DNA from: a virus | Lineage: Duplodnaviria > Caudoviricetes | Direction: 5' to 3' (one strand) | IMG/VR virus record: IMGVR_UViG_3300021197_000064 | Span: 1 to 51,339 of that record | DNA length: 51,339 bases | In this document: in pieces, positions 4,067 through 21,663 of the stretch | How the letters are laid out: each line of letters begins with the position of its first letter | Position numbering within the stretch: the first letter of the stretch is position 1 | The notes under the pieces: model-generated | Databases searched by the model: none | What the model was told of the DNA's origin: nothing | The model's input: the letters and a program-made list of their open reading frames with translations, nothing else | Position numbers and translations under genes: made by a program

Positions 4067-5001
4067 TAGTTAGCCCTTACGTTGCTAGAACTTCTTGAAT
4101 TACCTGTGTAGGGTATGTAGGTTGATCTGACATACTCAAATTTATTTACTAGGAGTGTCTGCATATTTTTAATGCCCTGCTCAAATCTAGCAAAAGCTAT
4201 ACCGTACTGTTGTGATTCGCCACGATACTGATATATGTAAGATACAGCACCATCTATAACTATAGGTGTAAATCTATCGGGTATGGATGTAGTATCTCCA
4301 TGTGCAGACAAGTCACTAGGAAAAGTAAAGTAATCATACTTTAAACTAAATGCTTTATCAGGATATGGATATAACAAATAGTTATTATCTAATGTTCTAA
4401 CTACAAAAGATGGAGCATCACCAGAATCAAACTGTGCTACTTGAACACCACTGGCATGTGTTGCAGCAGTTGTACTTTCTGCTCCACGAGTACAACCAGT
4501 AAGATCATTACCCAATATACCAGTATACGTTATAATTTCACTGCCTATATAAACTTTACCCGTAGAGTCAAAGCCTGTTGTTGATGTTAGTGTTAATGTT
4601 GTCACAGAACTTGAGTGTGAACCGTTTAGTGTTGTTGTGGTTACTTCATCTTCCTGTGTAATAAAATGATTTATATATTCATTGTAGTCTAGTTTATCTA
4701 ATCTGCCACCAGAAATGGCATTATCGCTATCCTTAACTATTCTAAATGTATTGTAGTCTACGGACTTAGCATCTGTTGGAATACTATAACGAACAGTACC
4801 CGGAACTAATGTTTCAGTTTTAGTAGAGTGATTAAATGGATAATTAAATTCACGTTGATTAATATAACGAATGGCTTCATTAACAGCGTTCTGTGCTTGA
4901 ACTTGAACACCACGTGCTGAAGTAAAATTAGCAGAAGTTAACTCTACTTCGTTTAATTTAACTAACACTTTATTTGTTAATGTAAGAAATGTCTCAGCCA
5001 T
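4066..5001 (-). CDS. Tail tubular protein A / head-tail adaptor, with inserted Thr-rich beta domain
   Basis: N-terminus FLTLTNKVLVKLNE...VNEAIRYIN and C-terminal YPYPD...IPDRF are typical of podovirus adaptors; position downstream of capsid genes. Confidence 0.7.
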   Translation of the reverse strand: MAETFLTLTNKVLVKLNEVELTSANFTSARGVQVQAQNAVNEAIRYINQREFNYPFNHSTKTETLVPGTVRYSIPTDAKSVDYNTFRIVKDSDNAISGGRLDKLDYNEYINHFITQEDEVTTTTLNGSHSSSVTTLTLTSTTGFDSTGKVYIGSEIITYTGILGNDLTGCTRGAESTTAATHASGVQVAQFDSGDAPSFVVRTLDNNYLLYPYPDKAFSLKYDYFTFPSDLSAHGDTTSIPDRFTPIVIDGAVSYIYQYRGESQQYGIAFARFEQGIKNMQTLLVNKFEYVRSTYIPYTGNSRSSSNVRAN

Positions 5002-6832: not shown

Positions 6833-6860
6833 GTTATACTAATATTCTATTGTATGTCAA
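6833..6860 (-). promoter_or_regulatory. Sigma70-type promoter upstream of the capsid gene
   Basis: TTGACA-N16-TATAAC on the minus strand; the same -10 hexamer occurs at 22052, 28788 and 35023. Confidence 0.65.
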
Positions 6861-7519
6861 GTCTTTTTTTGTTTTTCTATCTCAAGAAAATTCAAGTTCA
6901 TACTGAAAGACCTGCGTTCACCTTTAGTAGTGAATGGATATACACAGTGGAACAGTTCAGAGGGGAAGATATAGAAGTCTCCTACCTGTGGTTTTACGAG
7001 AAAATTAGTGCTGTTATAACCTGATGATGTTCCATGTGCAAACTGAATATGACCATGAGAAGGGTGATGATCCTTGTAATCTTCTTCCCACTCATCCTCT
7101 ATGCCATCTGGCAATGCAAGGTAGCCTACGCAAGAAAGTTTAGCACCCGTATGAATATGCAACGGATTGTATTCATTTTCATACTGTCGTACAAACCAAG
7201 CAGAGATTACCTGCACACCATAGTCATACTTTTCAGTGTCTACGTTACGTGCGCCAAATGAGTTACGCAACTCGCTATAGGAGTGATACTGCCCAATAAA
7301 GTTGCTAAGACCCTTTGTAGCAATACCTGTAGCCTCTTCAGTAAACGCTAGTTCTTGTTTAACTTTCCCAACTAAATAGTCGGAATAGTCTTCTAGGTTG
7401 TCATCCATGCAGTTGTTTAGCCCGTCCACCATTTCCTGTGGCATTTTAAAGTAACCCATAGTAGGGCCAAACGGACTAATAAACTGTACGTCTTCTTTCG
7501 GAGTAAATATGTTGCTCAT
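6857..7519 (-). CDS. 2OG-Fe(II) oxygenase-like protein (TIGR02466-type)
   Basis: YNPLHIH...LSCVGYL...KPQVGDFYIFPSELFHCVYPF...ERRSFSMN: HxH...H triad and RxS motif. Confidence 0.8.
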   Translation of the reverse strand: MSNIFTPKEDVQFISPFGPTMGYFKMPQEMVDGLNNCMDDNLEDYSDYLVGKVKQELAFTEEATGIATKGLSNFIGQYHSYSELRNSFGARNVDTEKYDYGVQVISAWFVRQYENEYNPLHIHTGAKLSCVGYLALPDGIEDEWEEDYKDHHPSHGHIQFAHGTSSGYNSTNFLVKPQVGDFYIFPSELFHCVYPFTTKGERRSFSMNLNFLEIEKQKKT

Positions 7520-16239: not shown

Positions 16240-16629
16240 CTAGGACTTCCCTTTTCCGAATAACCTAGTAGCACTGCGAACACCAAAGCTGGCGGCAACA
16301 ATAACACCAAGACTGTACTGATACCATTCAGGCATGGCTTGAAGTTGTGCAAATCCGTTTGCAACTACTTCTTCCATACCCGGAACGAACGCAAGTATGA
16401 GAGGGATGCTGAACAGAATTGTAAGCCACTCGTCTTTCCACGATGAGGAAGAGCCTTTAGCCATTTCCAAATCCCAATCAAGTTCGCCTGTAGCTTTCTT
16501 TTCCATGATTGTAGCTTCAGCTTTAGCCCGTGCAACTTTTGCACCAGTTTCTGCTTTAGACTTTTCAACTTTTCCATTTAACCAAGTTCCTGCTAAATCT
16601 GCTATAGGTCCAATTAATAAGTTTAACAT
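16240..16629 (-). CDS. Holin (3TM/GTA-holin-like)
   Basis: SSWKDEWLTILFSIPLILAF...PEWYQYSLGVIVAASFGVR; lies in the lysis cassette. Confidence 0.7.
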   Translation of the reverse strand: MLNLLIGPIADLAGTWLNGKVEKSKAETGAKVARAKAEATIMEKKATGELDWDLEMAKGSSSSWKDEWLTILFSIPLILAFVPGMEEVVANGFAQLQAMPEWYQYSLGVIVAASFGVRSATRLFGKGKS

Positions 16630-16871
16630 TATGCACCTCTTCTAAACTTTGCGGTTTTCTTTGCAATGTTTTTAGGTTGTTTAACAAACTGCTTACCCGC
16701 AGCCTTACCTTTTCTTTTTGCCTTAGTTGTAGCAGCATATTCACTACTTGTCAAGGACTTTATTGCTGCAGCAGGTAAGTAACGCTCTCCTGTCTTTGCA
16801 GAGGGCTTACCCGATTTAGTGCGCCACTTCTGGCTAGTCCAGTCTTTTAAACTTTTTTGTGGTGCTTTCAT
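16629..16871 (-). CDS. Small basic protein
   Basis: QKSLKDWTSQKWRTKSGKPSAKTGERYLP, Lys-rich; coupled to both neighbours. Confidence 0.7.
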   Translation of the reverse strand: MKAPQKSLKDWTSQKWRTKSGKPSAKTGERYLPAAAIKSLTSSEYAATTKAKRKGKAAGKQFVKQPKNIAKKTAKFRRGA

Positions 16872-17563
16872 TACTTTCTTGACTTCTCTATAGCTTTAAA
16901 TGTTTCATGTAAACTAAGCGGCTTTTCGTTTTTTGGGTCATACTTACACTGTATTTCTTTTGGGAAGTATTCATGTAAATTTATCCAGACGCTATCTACT
17001 GTATTGTTAGCACCATGATATATACATAGTCTTTCCCCATCTATGGTCTGGCATCCTTGTAGTCTACACACTACATACTCTGGTGATGCATTAGCAGCCA
17101 AACCTTTGAGAAATGATATAAATCCATACAGTACGCCTGAAGCAAGCAGCACCATTAATATCCATGCCACAATTTCAACAAACTTACGCCTACGTTGCCT
17201 TTGTTTGTATAAGGTTTCTTGGCGTTGCTTACGGATGGACCCTTCCATACGGACAAGTTCATCCCATTTAGACCTACCCATAGTCATGCCAATCCATTGC
17301 TGCAACTCATATCTTTGTTGTTGAGCCTTTTGCTTTGCAGCAAATGTTTCTATGGCCTCTTGTTCTACAGACTTACCAGCAAATAACTTCTTAAAGATAG
17401 GCGGGTTCTTGGCTTCCTTCTCAAGCATGTCCAAGTCGGACATTGCACCCATCCAGCGTGACAAGTCAGAAGCCATTGACTCAATATCACGGCCTATTTG
17501 GAAGCCTTTCTTAATAGCACCAAACGCTGCTGATGCTGTTGCCATTGCACTAATCGGGTCCAT
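16871..17563 (-). CDS. Membrane-anchored protein with C-terminal Cys-rich domain
   Basis: MDPISAMATASAAF helical N-domain, TM segment, CRLQGC...CIY...IQC. Confidence 0.65.
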   Translation of the reverse strand: MDPISAMATASAAFGAIKKGFQIGRDIESMASDLSRWMGAMSDLDMLEKEAKNPPIFKKLFAGKSVEQEAIETFAAKQKAQQQRYELQQWIGMTMGRSKWDELVRMEGSIRKQRQETLYKQRQRRRKFVEIVAWILMVLLASGVLYGFISFLKGLAANASPEYVVCRLQGCQTIDGERLCIYHGANNTVDSVWINLHEYFPKEIQCKYDPKNEKPLSLHETFKAIEKSRK

Positions 17564-17754
17564 TAATATACCTTTACATTTCCTTCTGTTATAAATTTAG
17601 GTACGCAGTAGGAGGTGATAAGATTACCCTGTTTGTGTAACGTCTGTGCATACCAAACGCATTCTCGTAGGTCTTTGAAGTGCATGTCACTGCTTACTAG
17701 CTTCTTGTCATCCCCTACACCGACAAATACGAATAGGAGAAAAACGTGTAACAT
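17563..17754 (-). CDS. Small hypothetical protein
   Basis: Hydrophobic N-terminus, two Cys; coupled to neighbours. Confidence 0.55.
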   Translation of the reverse strand: MLHVFLLFVFVGVGDDKKLVSSDMHFKDLRECVWYAQTLHKQGNLITSYCVPKFITEGNVKVY

Positions 17755-18006
17755 CTAACCTCTGTAACCTCCTCCTGCTTTTTTGTATGCAGACGCAAGC
17801 ATCTGGGCTTTTCTCGCCGACCACTGACCGGGTGCGCCGCCCTTACCGCCAGCCTTAATGCGATTAAACTGTTGCTTTCTCATTCCGGGCTTAGTGTAGT
17901 TGCCAGCTTCATTAACTCTACTCTTGCTCTTCGGCGCACCGCCTTTCGCAAGGCTAACCTTTCTAGCTGGCCTCTTTTTCGCTTTTGCTTTTGCAATCTT
18001 CGCCAT
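17755..18006 (-). CDS. Small basic protein
   Basis: GNYTKPGMRK...GGKGGAPGQWSARKAQMLASAYKKAGGGY; GAGG RBS. Confidence 0.7.
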   Translation of the reverse strand: MAKIAKAKAKKRPARKVSLAKGGAPKSKSRVNEAGNYTKPGMRKQQFNRIKAGGKGGAPGQWSARKAQMLASAYKKAGGGYRG

Positions 18007-18064
18007 CGTGATAATCTCGCCTCTTTGTGTTGTGAAGAAATGTCCATAGATGCTGCCCTCTATA

Positions 18065-18427
18065 TTAGGCTGCTTCTCTACTACTCCAGTAAATAGTTCC
18101 GTAGTCGTGTAGTATTTCTTGTCCTTTGGCTATGTTTTGAAGTGCGTAGAACCTAATAAAGTTATCGTCTTCTTCATTTACATCCCACTCTGCATTAGGA
18201 GTTTCGCTGTGATTGTATATCATAGCCAATCCTAATGGAATGCAGTACAAATTATCCTCCCCTTCATAGGGAGAATAAAACATGTAGTCGTGAAGAACAC
18301 ACTCATTGCCTATATCGTTTTCACTAGAAACCAGATAAGGACATAACTCTATAGTATCACCTACAGAATAGTCCTTATCTGCAAAAACTCCTAGACCGTG
18401 TATTTTAGATTTAGCTACGTAAGGCAA
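18065..18427 (-). CDS. SET-domain protein lysine methyltransferase
   Basis: SKIHGLGVFA (motif I), YNHSETPNA (NHS motif), IAKGQEILHDYG..YW (ELxxDY). TTG start immediately after the upstream TAA. Confidence 0.88.
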   Translation of the reverse strand: MPYVAKSKIHGLGVFADKDYSVGDTIELCPYLVSSENDIGNECVLHDYMFYSPYEGEDNLYCIPLGLAMIYNHSETPNAEWDVNEEDDNFIRFYALQNIAKGQEILHDYGTIYWSSREAA

Positions 18428-18817
18428 TTACTTCTTCTTTTTTGCCATGCCGCCACGCATCATCTTCTTTTTCTTGGCCATTTTAGCCATGCCGCCGCCC
18501 ATCATTTTTTTCTTCATCATGCCGCCGCCACGCATTTTTTTCTTTTTAGCCATCTTAGCCATTCCGCCACCAGCCATTTTACGTTTCATCATACCACCTC
18601 CACGCATTTTTTTCTTAGCCATTTTAGCCATACCACCTTTTGCTGCTGTCATAGTAGACTTTTTCTTCTTAGGTGTAGCTTTTGCAAAATAGTCTTGCAT
18701 AATTTTTTTGATTTCGATATCGTCAAAACCATCAGATTTAAGACGTTTTTCTGCTTCTTTCATTTCCTTGCGGATACGCTTACCGACACTATCATCTGTA
18801 TCTTTATCACTAGCCAT
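18428..18817 (-). CDS. Lys/Met/Gly tandem-repeat basic protein
   Basis: C-terminal repeats of MAKMAKKK(K)MRGGGMM; AGGAG RBS; synonymous codon variation between repeats indicates selection at protein level. Confidence 0.8.
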   Translation of the reverse strand: MASDKDTDDSVGKRIRKEMKEAEKRLKSDGFDDIEIKKIMQDYFAKATPKKKKSTMTAAKGGMAKMAKKKMRGGGMMKRKMAGGGMAKMAKKKKMRGGGMMKKKMMGGGMAKMAKKKKMMRGGMAKKKK

Positions 18818-19334
18818 TTCTTAATCTCCTTCTTTCGATAACTAAGGCTTCGTAAACATCATCTGGAAAATGCTCATAGTAATTAGACTTTTCCAGATAC
18901 AAAGCTGCATCGTCTAGTTTAGAAAGTTTCTGAACAAAGACCATACAGTAGGACAGGCTGTCATCTGTAACCTCATTATCTACGAGGAAATCAAGCCCAG
19001 CTTCTGTTGCGTCATAGTCAGGATGAAACACCATTAAGTGCAAATCAATACCTGCTATTGACATCAACTCATTCATGCCATCACACAGACCATCAAGGTA
19101 TTCCATGTCTGGCAAATCTTCATCAGCCCATACTACAATATCGTAGTCGTGACCATCAAACTTACGGATAGCTTCTAGTAGTCCATCTATCCCTGTATTA
19201 AGACTGAACACTACCTTGTCATCAGCCCATGCTTTTCTAGCATAGGGGCAAGGTGGTAGACCATTTAATTTAGCACTAGGTACTTCTAAAAAGTCTTTTG
19301 ACCATGTGCGTATATCACGCTCTACTGGATGCAC
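18810..19334 (-). CDS. DUF1415-like protein
   Basis: LNGLPPCPYARKAW...MVFHPD motifs; probable GTG start at 19334. Confidence 0.6.
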   Translation of the reverse strand: MHPVERDIRTWSKDFLEVPSAKLNGLPPCPYARKAWADDKVVFSLNTGIDGLLEAIRKFDGHDYDIVVWADEDLPDMEYLDGLCDGMNELMSIAGIDLHLMVFHPDYDATEAGLDFLVDNEVTDDSLSYCMVFVQKLSKLDDAALYLEKSNYYEHFPDDVYEALVIERRRLRNG

Positions 19335-19623
19335 GTTTTTTGGTCTTTCGTTTTTGAGATTCAATAAACTTTCTATACACTGCAGCAGCGGCCTTTTTAC
19401 CAGCCGCCCTAGCACGTTGTTCCATAGCAATCGCCGCTTGTGTCTTATGAGCATGTGTACGACTTGCCGCCTTTATTTTACGCACAGATGCCTCTGCATC
19501 TTTAGCTGTAGCAAACTTCAACCCTTTAATAGTACCTTTAGGATTTTCATCCGTGTACAGGTCGCTATGCTTTTTTGACCCGGCGGGTTGTCCTTTTTTT
19601 CTTGGTACTCTGGGATTGGGCAT
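19315..19623 (-). CDS. Small basic protein
   Basis: HSDLYTDENPKGTIKGLKFAT...AMEQRA; ATG at 19623. Confidence 0.7.
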   Translation of the reverse strand: MPNPRVPRKKGQPAGSKKHSDLYTDENPKGTIKGLKFATAKDAEASVRKIKAASRTHAHKTQAAIAMEQRARAAGKKAAAAVYRKFIESQKRKTKKRASSRA

Positions 19624-19729
19624 TACTAACCACCTTTGACAAAATATTAGATTGTTTAGCATGGGCTTTAGAAGCCTTCTTTAGTTTACCTGCTACAGTT
19701 TTCAGTTTTTTTAAGTTTTGATTTCTCAT
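19565..19729 (-). CDS. Small basic protein (54 aa, not in ORF track)
   Basis: MRNQNLKKLKTVAGKLKKASKAHAKQSNILSK...; ATG abuts the upstream stop. Confidence 0.55.
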   Translation of the reverse strand: MRNQNLKKLKTVAGKLKKASKAHAKQSNILSKVVSNAQSQSTKKKRTTRRVKKA

Positions 19730-19966
19730 TTACTTTTTAACCATTCCACCTTTTTTCATAAAGCCCATGTTGTTACGTGCAGACTGTGGGAGCATACTTA
19801 GACCCTTTCCTTTTTTACCGGGAGGGATAGGTTTAAGATTGTTAGATGTGCCTGTTACCATGCCACCATTACGGAAGTCCATACTACCTTTGCGGGGCTT
19901 TTTACCTTTAGGCATTTTTGCCATACCAATACCGATTGTAATTACGGGTACTTTCTTTTTAGCCAT
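19730..19966 (-). CDS. Small basic protein with xxGG motifs
   Basis: FRNGGMV, FMKKGGMVKK; AGGAG RBS. Confidence 0.7.
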   Translation of the reverse strand: MAKKKVPVITIGIGMAKMPKGKKPRKGSMDFRNGGMVTGTSNNLKPIPPGKKGKGLSMLPQSARNNMGFMKKGGMVKK

Positions 19967-19975
19967 AATTAACTC

Positions 19976-21151
19976 CTACTTTTTCTTTTTGAAGACCATA
20001 GTCTTCGTTTTACCATTAACAGTTATATTCCTCAAGACTTCTGTCTTTTGATTATAACTACCCTGAAATACTCTACCTCTATCTCTCATTGAAGGGCTAA
20101 TACGCTTTGCCGTTACCTTACCACCACGTGGTCTACTCTGGTCAGCCGTTGGTCTTTTAGGTCTTCGTTTTGCAGCATCACTAGCTTGCTCTGGACCTTT
20201 ACGTGCTTCAGCATCTTTCTTCTTTTTAGCTGCATCACGTATTCTTTTTCTAGCTGCAGCTTCTTCTGCCGCTGCCTGTGCAGCAGTCCTGCCACCGGGT
20301 GATTTTCTACGTATACTTTGATCTGGCTTTGGTCTTACAGGACGTTTCTTAGTTGTGGCAGCCGCCGCCGTGCTTGCACTTTGTGTTTTTTTATCTGATT
20401 TTGTAGCCATACCTATTCCCGCAACACTAACACCTGCTGCTAACAAAGCTGCTTTAGTAATATCGCCTGACCTAAAAGCACGTAGCTGTGCAGGAGTAGG
20501 TTGCTTTAGTTTACTAGGAGTACCAACTGTCGTTGACTTACCTTTTTTAGTTTTTCTATCTCCCCGTAACGGTTTTCTTTCTGCTTTAATAGGAGTGCGT
20601 TGCGCCCGTACATTAGACTTAGTAGTGCTAGTGCCAGCCCCTTGTGCTTTAGGTGCTGGGGGTGTAGGTTTTTTAGCTGCTACTCCACTTGGTTTTATTT
20701 TAGTCTGTGTTTTTATGGAGGGTGTCTCTGATTTAACAGACTTGCGTTCTGCTTGTACATTAGAACGTAATGCACGTTTTTGGTCAGGGGTAGGCTGTTT
20801 TGTTTCTTTTAATTTTTTAGGAGTAATCTTACTCTCTGCCTTAATGGGTTTGCGTTCTGCTCTAACCTTGCGTCTTTGCTGACGAACACGAGAGGCTTTT
20901 GTTCCAGCAGCACTAAGAGTCTTTTGTACTTTAGCTGCTTTAGCAGGAGCAGCAGCACGTCTAGCTTGAAGAAGTGTTCTAGCAGCTTTTGTACCTGCTC
21001 TTACTGCCTTGATAGCAGCACCTCCCGGTACTCCTAAAAGAAGAAGTTCAGCTAGTATTGTTGCTCCTCTAGCATCAGCTTTATCAAAAACATCTTTACT
21101 TACACCTGCATCTTTAGCAATCTGAGTTTTCATCTCATCCGATAAAGCCAT
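19976..21151 (-). CDS. Histone H1-like K/A/R/P-rich protein
   Basis: 391 aa low-complexity basic protein with internal duplications (AERKPIK-like three times, KQPTP twice, KRP.RP..DQS twice); AGGAG RBS. Confidence 0.7.
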   Translation of the reverse strand: MALSDEMKTQIAKDAGVSKDVFDKADARGATILAELLLLGVPGGAAIKAVRAGTKAARTLLQARRAAAPAKAAKVQKTLSAAGTKASRVRQQRRKVRAERKPIKAESKITPKKLKETKQPTPDQKRALRSNVQAERKSVKSETPSIKTQTKIKPSGVAAKKPTPPAPKAQGAGTSTTKSNVRAQRTPIKAERKPLRGDRKTKKGKSTTVGTPSKLKQPTPAQLRAFRSGDITKAALLAAGVSVAGIGMATKSDKKTQSASTAAAATTKKRPVRPKPDQSIRRKSPGGRTAAQAAAEEAAARKRIRDAAKKKKDAEARKGPEQASDAAKRRPKRPTADQSRPRGGKVTAKRISPSMRDRGRVFQGSYNQKTEVLRNITVNGKTKTMVFKKKK

Positions 21152-21163
21152 CAGTATCTCCTG

Positions 21164-21457
21164 TTACCATTTAACTTTGTGCGACCAGTATTTCGCTGAC
21201 AGCTTTGTGGTCGGCTTGCCCTGTGCATCGTGACGTGCGTAGTAGGACTTCTTACGTGCTTTGTCTTTAGCACTCTTCGGGTTCTTACCAGCCCCGGATA
21301 CGCCTTGCTGTCCAAAACGTATGAACTTATACTTACCACCTTCAGACGCCATCACTGCGTGTGATTTCTTTGGGTGTTTAGGAGTACGCTTTGGCTTATT
21401 GACGCCAGACAGCCCCTCCTCCTTCATCTTATTTTTTACTCTTTCGGGTATGGCCAT
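21164..21457 (-). CDS. Small basic protein
   Basis: NKPKRTPKHPKKSHAV...IRFGQQG...SYYARH...SAKYWSHKVKW. Confidence 0.75.
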   Translation of the reverse strand: MAIPERVKNKMKEEGLSGVNKPKRTPKHPKKSHAVMASEGGKYKFIRFGQQGVSGAGKNPKSAKDKARKKSYYARHDAQGKPTTKLSAKYWSHKVKW

Positions 21458-21663
21458 TATGTTGGAGTTCCCGGTGATGTACACTTCCAGCTTACAGGTA
21501 CGTGTAGTGGAATGTTCTCAATAATATCTGCACTCATTTCTACAGTACGCTCATAGCACTCGTCATGCGTCTTATACGGACCACGAGTATCTTGTGCAGG
21601 AAAACACGCACCTGTCTGGTACATAACACAGACCATTATCCATGCTTCAAACATATCATTCAT
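21457..21663 (-). CDS. Small Cys-containing hypothetical protein
   Basis: 68 aa, CFPAQDTRGPY...EC...KC; coupled to neighbours. Confidence 0.55.
   Translation of the reverse strand: MNDMFEAWIMVCVMYQTGACFPAQDTRGPYKTHDECYERTVEMSADIIENIPLHVPVSWKCTSPGTPT

Follow-up and report, generated by a model that had tools for sequence, protein, structure and literature searches.

PBCV-1, a giant virus of a eukaryotic alga, encodes the H3K27 methyltransferase vSET (A612L), which acts on histone H3 of its host. Methyl-lysine also occurs in the Lys/Ala-rich C-terminal repeats of the mycobacterial proteins HBHA and laminin-binding protein, where it is reported to protect against proteolysis. Among prokaryotic SET enzymes, the chlamydial cpnSET methylates the histone-like protein Hc1, in the account given by a review (PMC10117894) that also cites, by title, work on an archaeal SET whose target is the DNA-associated protein MC1-alpha. 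For tailed phages, our literature search found no characterized SET among the papers listed, in agreement with an earlier note on the DNA studied here, which a model had made from the sequence alone; nor did the search find a paper linking phage HMO-2011 with "SET domain" or, among those listed for SAR116/Puniceispirillum, one that contains this term. We know of no job for the SET proteins of free-living bacteria or of tailed phages. A survey of HMO-2011-type phages (PMC9038755) uses neither "methyltransferase" nor "lysine" in its main text, and its supplementary orthogroup tables could already include the SET gene described here. Entries named "uncultured Caudovirales phage" already carry annotated SET domain proteins (BFVD; e.g., a 128 amino acid protein with 36% identity). 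Here we describe one phage SET gene, its neighbors and its relatives in phages and bacteria, and we weigh what its product may act on.

Results

A Minimal SET Enzyme in the Late Arm of a Marine Podophage

The window, by which we mean the whole stretch of DNA analyzed here, is a virus record of 51,339 bases with the gene content of an HMO-2011-type marine podophage. Among phage records, Puniceispirillum phage HMO-2011 alone matches it at the nucleotide level. The minus strand, read from about 21.9 kb to base 1, carries genes for small basic proteins, an endolysin, the large terminase, a portal/adaptor protein, a 2OG-Fe(II) oxygenase, the major head protein and tail proteins, with additional minus-strand genes at 42–51 kb; the plus strand between 22 and 42 kb carries DNA polymerase, ribonucleotide reductase and other replication genes. 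The SET gene (18065..18427, minus strand) belongs to the late arm and lies on the same strand as the lysis, terminase, portal and major capsid genes. Promoter and terminator scans around it return chance-level sites only.

The gene starts with TTG and encodes 120 amino acids. We are highly confident that the product is a SET enzyme, and we classify it as a SET-domain protein lysine methyltransferase of the minimal, vSET-like form on the evidence of Pfam, PDB and AF2. The Pfam SET profile (PF00856) matches from position 1 to 105 of 105 (E = 6.5e-13; 49.4 bits, cut-off 22.4), and the best PDB sequence match is PBCV-1 vSET (1n3j; phmmer, E = 3.4e-14). The AF2 model (mean pLDDT 85.2) has 317 PDB matches at E <= 0.001 in Foldseek, the top ones being Plasmodium PFL0690c, vSET (3kma_A) and S. 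pombe Set7. It superposes on vSET 3kma_A, a near-best structural match, with a TM-score of 0.74/0.83, an rmsd of 2.3 Å and 33% identity.

Three motifs stand out: HGLGVF (residues 10–15), YNHS (71–74) and EILHDY (104–109). The first contains a GxG, which we take to be the SAM-binding motif, and the second an NHS, which we take to be a SET motif; their positions come from the alignment. In an alignment of 20 SET sequences, G13, V14, F15, Y71, N72, H73, E104 and Y109 are invariant, and Y113 and W114 are at least 90% conserved. EILHDY aligns with EITISY of vSET, and IYW with its DYW. The six residues from G13 to H73 in this list are also conserved across 82 phage and 64 host SETs (for the hosts, see below). 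The protein is acidic (pI 4.2). The earlier note had read the gene as a minimal, acidic SET domain keeping the GxG, NHS and ELxxDY-type motifs, and it was right on each point.

The TTG start (18425–18427) directly follows the TAA (18428–18430) of the upstream ORF (junction AAGAAGTAATTGCCTTAC), as the earlier note had it. This start is inherited, being common to the nine nearest relatives. Over 78 relatives the start is ATG in 66, TTG in nine and GTG in three, and the ATG mostly lies in a TAATG overlap with the upstream stop. We gathered 154 SET frames from 156 phage loci (some contigs are present twice); all 154 are open, and they represent 90 distinct sequences. In one further record match, a TAA stands at the boundary of the gene. 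Judging from family and motifs, the phage protein is intact and is probably an active SAM-dependent protein-lysine methyltransferase of the vSET-like kind.

The Adjacent Gene Encodes a Lys/Met/Gly-Repeat Protein

The ORF directly 5′ of the SET gene (18428..18817, minus strand) encodes a protein of 129 amino acids, called KMG here after its composition (29% K, 17% M, 14% G). Its composition and homologs define a helical N-terminal extension and a Lys/Met/Gly-repeat core (residues approximately 58–129), which has 30–40% Lys and no acidic residue. The repeated tail that the earlier note had seen in this protein is a tandem repeat at 18449..18631 (minus strand) with a period of 72 nt (24 amino acids) and 2.5 copies (Tandem Repeats Finder: 78% matches, score 192). 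Across all loci gathered, in which some contigs occur twice, 221 KMG-type frames are open. They vary in length by whole codons, and almost all of them stop at the start of the next gene or reach one base into it; we therefore regard KMG as a real coding gene. A plus-strand ORF in the same place (18398–18841, 147 amino acids) was considered as a gene and rejected. It is the mirror frame of the low-complexity repeat, the conserved frame is that of the minus strand, and it should not be annotated.

KMG matches no Pfam or PHROG family; none of its 133 database relatives has a Pfam domain, and in the Protein Atlas it falls in unnamed viral clusters only. A pattern coding for MRGGM has one site in the window, inside KMG, and none in 100 shuffles. 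In relatives, at least three extensions, unrelated to one another, are found joined to the KMG core (P0054, P0061, P0072, P0121, P0064, P0131). One of these is an N-terminal helix pair, called a "predicted transcriptional regulator" in two sources, and the others are C-terminal domains. Such fusions hint that the core may be a portable nucleic-acid-binding tail.

KMG is also present where there is no SET gene. HMO-2011 has an unannotated KMG ORF of 50 amino acids in the 141-bp gap between gp66 and gp65 (locus position 4503–4655), which overlaps the start of gp65 by 1 nt, and roseophage CRP-345 has a KMG of 47 amino acids followed by an unrelated gene; both phages lack SET. KMG seems to be a core gene throughout the HMO-2011-type phages that has gone unnoticed.

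On the other side of KMG lies an acidic protein of approximately 175 amino acids, which we call acid214 (18810..19334, minus strand; phrog_28122, PHROG E = 1.7e-76). It too is a core gene, always 5′ of KMG, with an 8-nt overlap with the KMG start. The listed ORF extends to 19454; in a representative search the homologs start at residue ~41, and the true start probably lies about 40 codons inside the listed ORF (18810–19454). Homologs include HMO-2011 gp66 (76.9%) and a gene of CRP-345, with distant ones in cyanomyophages, and Cys-Pro, Gln, Tyr and Arg positions are invariant. The AF2 model (pLDDT 93) is an alpha/beta domain that matches no PDB fold (best E = 0.039, TM <= 0.33). We considered acid214 as a clue to the function of KMG and dropped it, given the missing fold match and the weak matches to DUF6875 and DUF1415 (7 and 6 of 37 members). 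A role as partner or chaperone for the basic KMG peptide is conceivable.

The surrounding region (16629–21484, minus strand) encodes a series of at least eight proteins, small or rich in repeats, with pI values of 10.4–12.0. The series includes a 78 amino acid protein that also has GGM motifs (19730–19966) and a Lys/Arg/Ala/Pro-rich protein of 391 amino acids without a PHROG match (19976–21151). These look like nucleic-acid-binding or internal proteins.

SET Is Accessory Cargo behind a Core Gene

Does the pairing of the two genes hold from both sides? We kept the best 80 of 138 relatives from a SET scan of viral contigs, and the best 80 of 345 from a search with a profile of distant SETs; many viral records are fragments. 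Wherever the first set includes upstream sequence (77 loci), a KMG-type ORF (44–137 amino acids) stands directly 5′ of SET. After removal of duplicates from the best-80 sets, KMG precedes SET in 81 of 81 distinct junctions of the HMO-2011 lineage, down to 46% SET identity, and the junction is usually a 1-nt TAATG overlap. Insertions pile up downstream of SET and not at the KMG side. That SET abuts a Lys/Met/Gly-repeat gene, as the earlier note had reported for this one locus, is thus true of every related phage locus with SET.

Seen from KMG, the picture differs. We collected 80 loci through HMO-2011 gp66, a sample that leans to HMO-2011's own relatives, and 77 of them have room after gp66. 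KMG is present in all 77: 67 were found by an automatic rule (at least two GGM), and ten, with GGV variants that the rule misses, by eye, one of these being frameshifted. SET follows KMG in only ten of the 77. The other followers are a gp64-like gene of 119 amino acids (27 loci), gp65 (three), the small basic gene basic83 described below (one) and unidentified genes (26); the ten by-eye loci were left unscored. On one phage contig (L230) KMG is split between two frames, possibly through a sequencing error.

The gene order in HMO-2011-type contigs is acidic protein, KMG, SET, an optional insert, basic83 and then the lysis genes; in the window, acid214, KMG, SET and basic83 are all on the minus strand. 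The slot between KMG/SET and basic83 holds, depending on the relative, the gp64-like 119 amino acid gene, the 419 amino acid "virion structural protein" gp65, the start of a methanesulfonate-monooxygenase-like gene or several unidentified ORFs, and KMG is packed stop-to-start against whatever gene comes next. SET is therefore accessory cargo in a variable slot behind the core KMG gene, and its presence is patchy in related phages. In the phage collection no isolate has SET; the matches there are two records of one uncultured 735-kb phage.

A tree of the phage SETs (101 sequences, 121 columns, quick search) places the HMO-2011-type sequences in two well-supported clades of 74 and 8 rows, and the SETs of this lineage may have a single origin. 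Since they form two clades, perhaps one, the KMG-SET adjacency counts as one or two insertion events, however many loci display it. We find no co-occurrence of SET and KMG beyond shared descent, which a dedicated enzyme-substrate pair should show. The conserved junction fits some selection for co-translation.

ARK Motifs of the Downstream Basic Protein

The downstream border of the cargo slot is basic83 (17755..18006, minus strand; 83 amino acids, pI 11.7; phrog_17747, PHROG E = 5.5e-32). The earlier note had drawn attention to ARKV and ARKA in this protein for their likeness to the ARKS context of histone H3. Both are present, ARKV at residue 14 and ARKA, within SARKAQ, at residue 64, and two ARK are mildly unusual for the composition (2.3% of 20,000 shuffles), but as evidence for a substrate they are uninformative. 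All 114 distinct basic83 homologs contain SARKAQ unchanged, and they divide into 72 whose loci have SET and 42 whose loci lack it. An extra ARK, like ARKV, is sporadic (5/72 with SET versus 1/42 without). Four further proteins of the region contain ARK as well. No ARK motif thus follows the presence of SET as the substrate motif of an enzyme-substrate pair would.

SET Genes of Other Phage Types

The survey of phage SET neighborhoods that the earlier note had proposed shows SET always behind KMG in the HMO-2011 lineage. In other phage types, none of nine distinct junctions has a KMG ORF. The MRGGM-coding pattern is likewise absent from five SET records of other types, these being 3–67% complete. 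In one such type, SET sits in the replication module, with the gene for a DnaB-like helicase or endonuclease VII on one side and that for a 2OG-Fe(II) oxygenase on the other.

The window has an oxygenase of its own (2OG-FeII_Oxy_5; 6857–7519, minus strand), flanked by the major head gene and phrog_13678. It shares 68% identity with the gene next behind SET in a different type of phage (L083, 2588–3256; L284). We considered SET and the oxygenase as a writer/eraser pair and dropped the idea: SET lies beside the oxygenase in one of 80 oxygenase loci. The oxygenase is found in two of five SET-bearing records and none of five SET-less ones, and SET in two of five oxygenase-bearing records. The link is probably one of shared cargo, not of a pathway.

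The Nearest Cellular Relatives Are SAR116 Chromosomal Genes

We scanned bacterial genomes, one per species, for SET and kept the best 80 of 215 relatives. Among these 80, 65 are SAR116, Puniceispirillaceae or Alphaproteobacteria records (45–53% identity, on contigs of up to 444 kb), and 15 belong to Saprospiraceae and other Bacteroidota. Within the SAR116 (Puniceispirillaceae) family to which one of these genomes belongs, and which is also the host family of HMO-2011, 70 of 72 genomes have a SET match, nearly always a single one. In one genome of the family (G039:C77:6997-7339) the match is broken by four stop codons, a possible pseudogene. The recorded host of HMO-2011, a phage that itself lacks SET, is Ca. 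Puniceispirillum marinum, and we refer to the SAR116 genes as host SETs.

The host SET stands alone in at least two ordinary metabolic settings, named by eye from translations: one with a LysE-type exporter and pyruvate kinase, the other with an OYE-type reductase, an MBL-fold hydrolase and a molybdopterin oxidoreductase. No KMG-like neighbor occurs in 31 host loci; the one basic neighbor on the same strand is Arg-rich. In five SAR116 genomes, MRGGM or MSGGM is encoded in three coding stretches, none of them in a Lys-rich peptide.

In a tree of host and phage SETs (104 sequences, 119 columns, quick search, midpoint root), the two group together in a single clade (98% SH-aLRT) that leaves out the Bacteroidota sequences. 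A branch with support 80 sets off the hosts, and the phage clades stand beside and not within them, under the midpoint root and with 119 columns. Host and phage SETs have the same residue at 36 positions that are at least 85% conserved in both, share one gap column, and show four group-specific differences. Their pI values are 4.1 and 4.2. Because the host enzyme is equally acidic, the acidity of the phage SET is not an adaptation to KMG.

Since its nearest cellular relatives are single-copy chromosomal genes of SAR116, the SET gene seems to have been exchanged between host and phage. With the phage SETs sister to the host clade, capture from the host and transfer in the reverse direction are both possible. 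The GC content of the phage SET is 38% and that of the host loci 51%, a gap from which we judge the transfer to be old, so that function could have drifted. The presumed host lineage contains a close homolog of the phage gene, as is expected of an auxiliary gene.

Discussion

What does the phage SET act on? The best explanation overall, to which we give an even chance, is that it is a SAR116-related enzyme, carried as accessory cargo, that methylates a host-type basic target. The narrower statement that it shares its target with the host enzyme, a host or host-like protein, we hold at about that level or slightly lower; it draws on homology and distribution. SET occurs in hosts and in other phages, a distribution that favors a target existing in the phage-free cell. 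Late in infection, the phage SET would methylate lysines of a basic target like that of the host enzyme, most likely a cellular protein, and it might supplement or take over a host modification in the manner of an auxiliary gene. The contact between KMG and SET would then be a consequence of the insertion site and of the tight stop/start packing of the operon; the position of SET beside KMG is more likely an accident of insertion than proof of a joint function. Against a host target speak the sister position of the phage SETs and the age of any transfer, after which the function could have drifted, and also two features of the locus. The junction is never broken, and at least eight basic, Lys-rich proteins made from the same operon would meet SET at high concentration.

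These two features lead to the writer-substrate pair proposed in the earlier note. In the form considered here, SET would methylate the lysines of KMG, translated just before it from the same mRNA, and perhaps those of other basic late proteins, with an effect on nucleic-acid binding, protease resistance or packaging. Several observations agree with it. KMG is directly 5′ of SET in all 81 distinct junctions, usually through the TAATG overlap, and this side is kept down to 46% SET identity while the downstream side takes insertions. The charges match, an enzyme of pI 4.2 facing a core with 30–40% Lys and no acidic residue, and the late arm around SET encodes eight proteins of pI 10.4–12.0. There is also a precedent, as reviewed, in chlamydial cpnSET and Hc1 (PMC10117894). 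Yet KMG is a core gene that manages without SET in 67 of the 77 loci sampled and in the two isolates examined, and genes other than SET adjoin or overlap it just as closely, such as gp65 in HMO-2011. One or two insertions explain every adjacency; equally similar SETs lack KMG in other phages (0/9) and in the 70 of 72 SAR116-family genomes; the host enzyme is just as acidic; and the ARK motifs do not track SET. A complex prediction of SET with SAM and KMG residues 58–129, run without controls, scored 0.02 against a mark of 0.32 and weighs neither way. The inference from adjacency to substrate is not supported by this distribution, and we consider such a module unlikely. Much the same low standing applies to the general statement that SET methylates KMG or other basic late proteins. 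The chromatin-like modification system of the earlier note becomes a minority reading on the same evidence: a phage "chromatin mark" layer on protamine-like KMG and basic peptides, with a functional and translationally coupled KMG-SET junction, is in our estimate a little less probable still.

Could the target instead be part of the virion? SET might methylate capsid, portal or internal proteins, for instance stabilizing the particles, and its place in the late arm would then reflect the timing of assembly. It does share strand and arm with the lysis, terminase, portal and major capsid genes, and no terminator- or promoter-like site above chance separates it from its surroundings. However, in another type of phage the related SET genes lie in the replication module next to a DnaB-like helicase, host genomes keep the enzyme without any virion, and SET-less relatives build the same particles, all of which makes a virion target improbable. 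Least probable is a non-catalytic SET, whether a decoy for SAM or for substrates of the host enzyme or a gene being lost: the weak TTG start of the window and its nine nearest relatives and the dispensability of SET in most of the phage group would suit it, but the SAM-binding and catalytic positions are all invariant across phage and host SETs, the 154 frames (90 distinct) are all open, and 66 of 78 relatives start with ATG.

The preferred reading, a host-type target, has consequences beyond this phage. SAR116 is a very abundant marine clade in which a minimal SET is near-universal, and the same SET turns up again in phages of a group whose type isolate infects SAR116; this suggests that the SET target matters during infection. 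An enzyme common to host and phage offers a concrete route to finding that target. The analysis also removes a weak inference, that adjacency implies a substrate, and brings to light KMG, a core gene with a Lys/Met/Gly-repeat product of 45–130 amino acids that the HMO-2011 reference record leaves unannotated. If KMG were methylated after all, it would mean a layer of lysine methylation on protamine-like DNA/RNA-binding peptides in a very abundant group of ocean phages.

Comparison with Known Systems

HBHA and laminin-binding protein offer a model for what methylation of KMG could do, with another class of enzyme and in other organisms. In the enzyme itself, the closest likeness is to PBCV-1 vSET. 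Both are virus-encoded, bare SET cores (119 amino acids for vSET, 120 here) without pre-SET or post-SET domains, and both have the GxG, NHS and E..Y motifs. The settings differ, however: vSET serves a virus whose eukaryotic host has histones, whereas the phage SET belongs to a podophage of approximately 51 kb that infects histone-less bacteria, and its nearest cellular relatives are bacterial (SAR116) genes.

In kind of client, the nearer parallels are cpnSET with Hc1 and Methanosarcina Go1-SET with MC1-alpha, as the review presents them (PMC10117894). There, as plausibly here, a prokaryotic SET has small, basic, Lys-rich nucleic-acid-binding proteins as clients. Those pairs have been proven biochemically; phage SET and KMG, a candidate pair, do not co-occur in the manner of a pair. 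The SAR116 SET is the relative that matches the phage enzyme in sequence (45–53% identity), clade (98% SH-aLRT), length class and acidity. The two differ in genomic standing: the SAR116 SET is a stand-alone chromosomal gene kept in 70 of 72 genomes, and the phage SET is accessory cargo.
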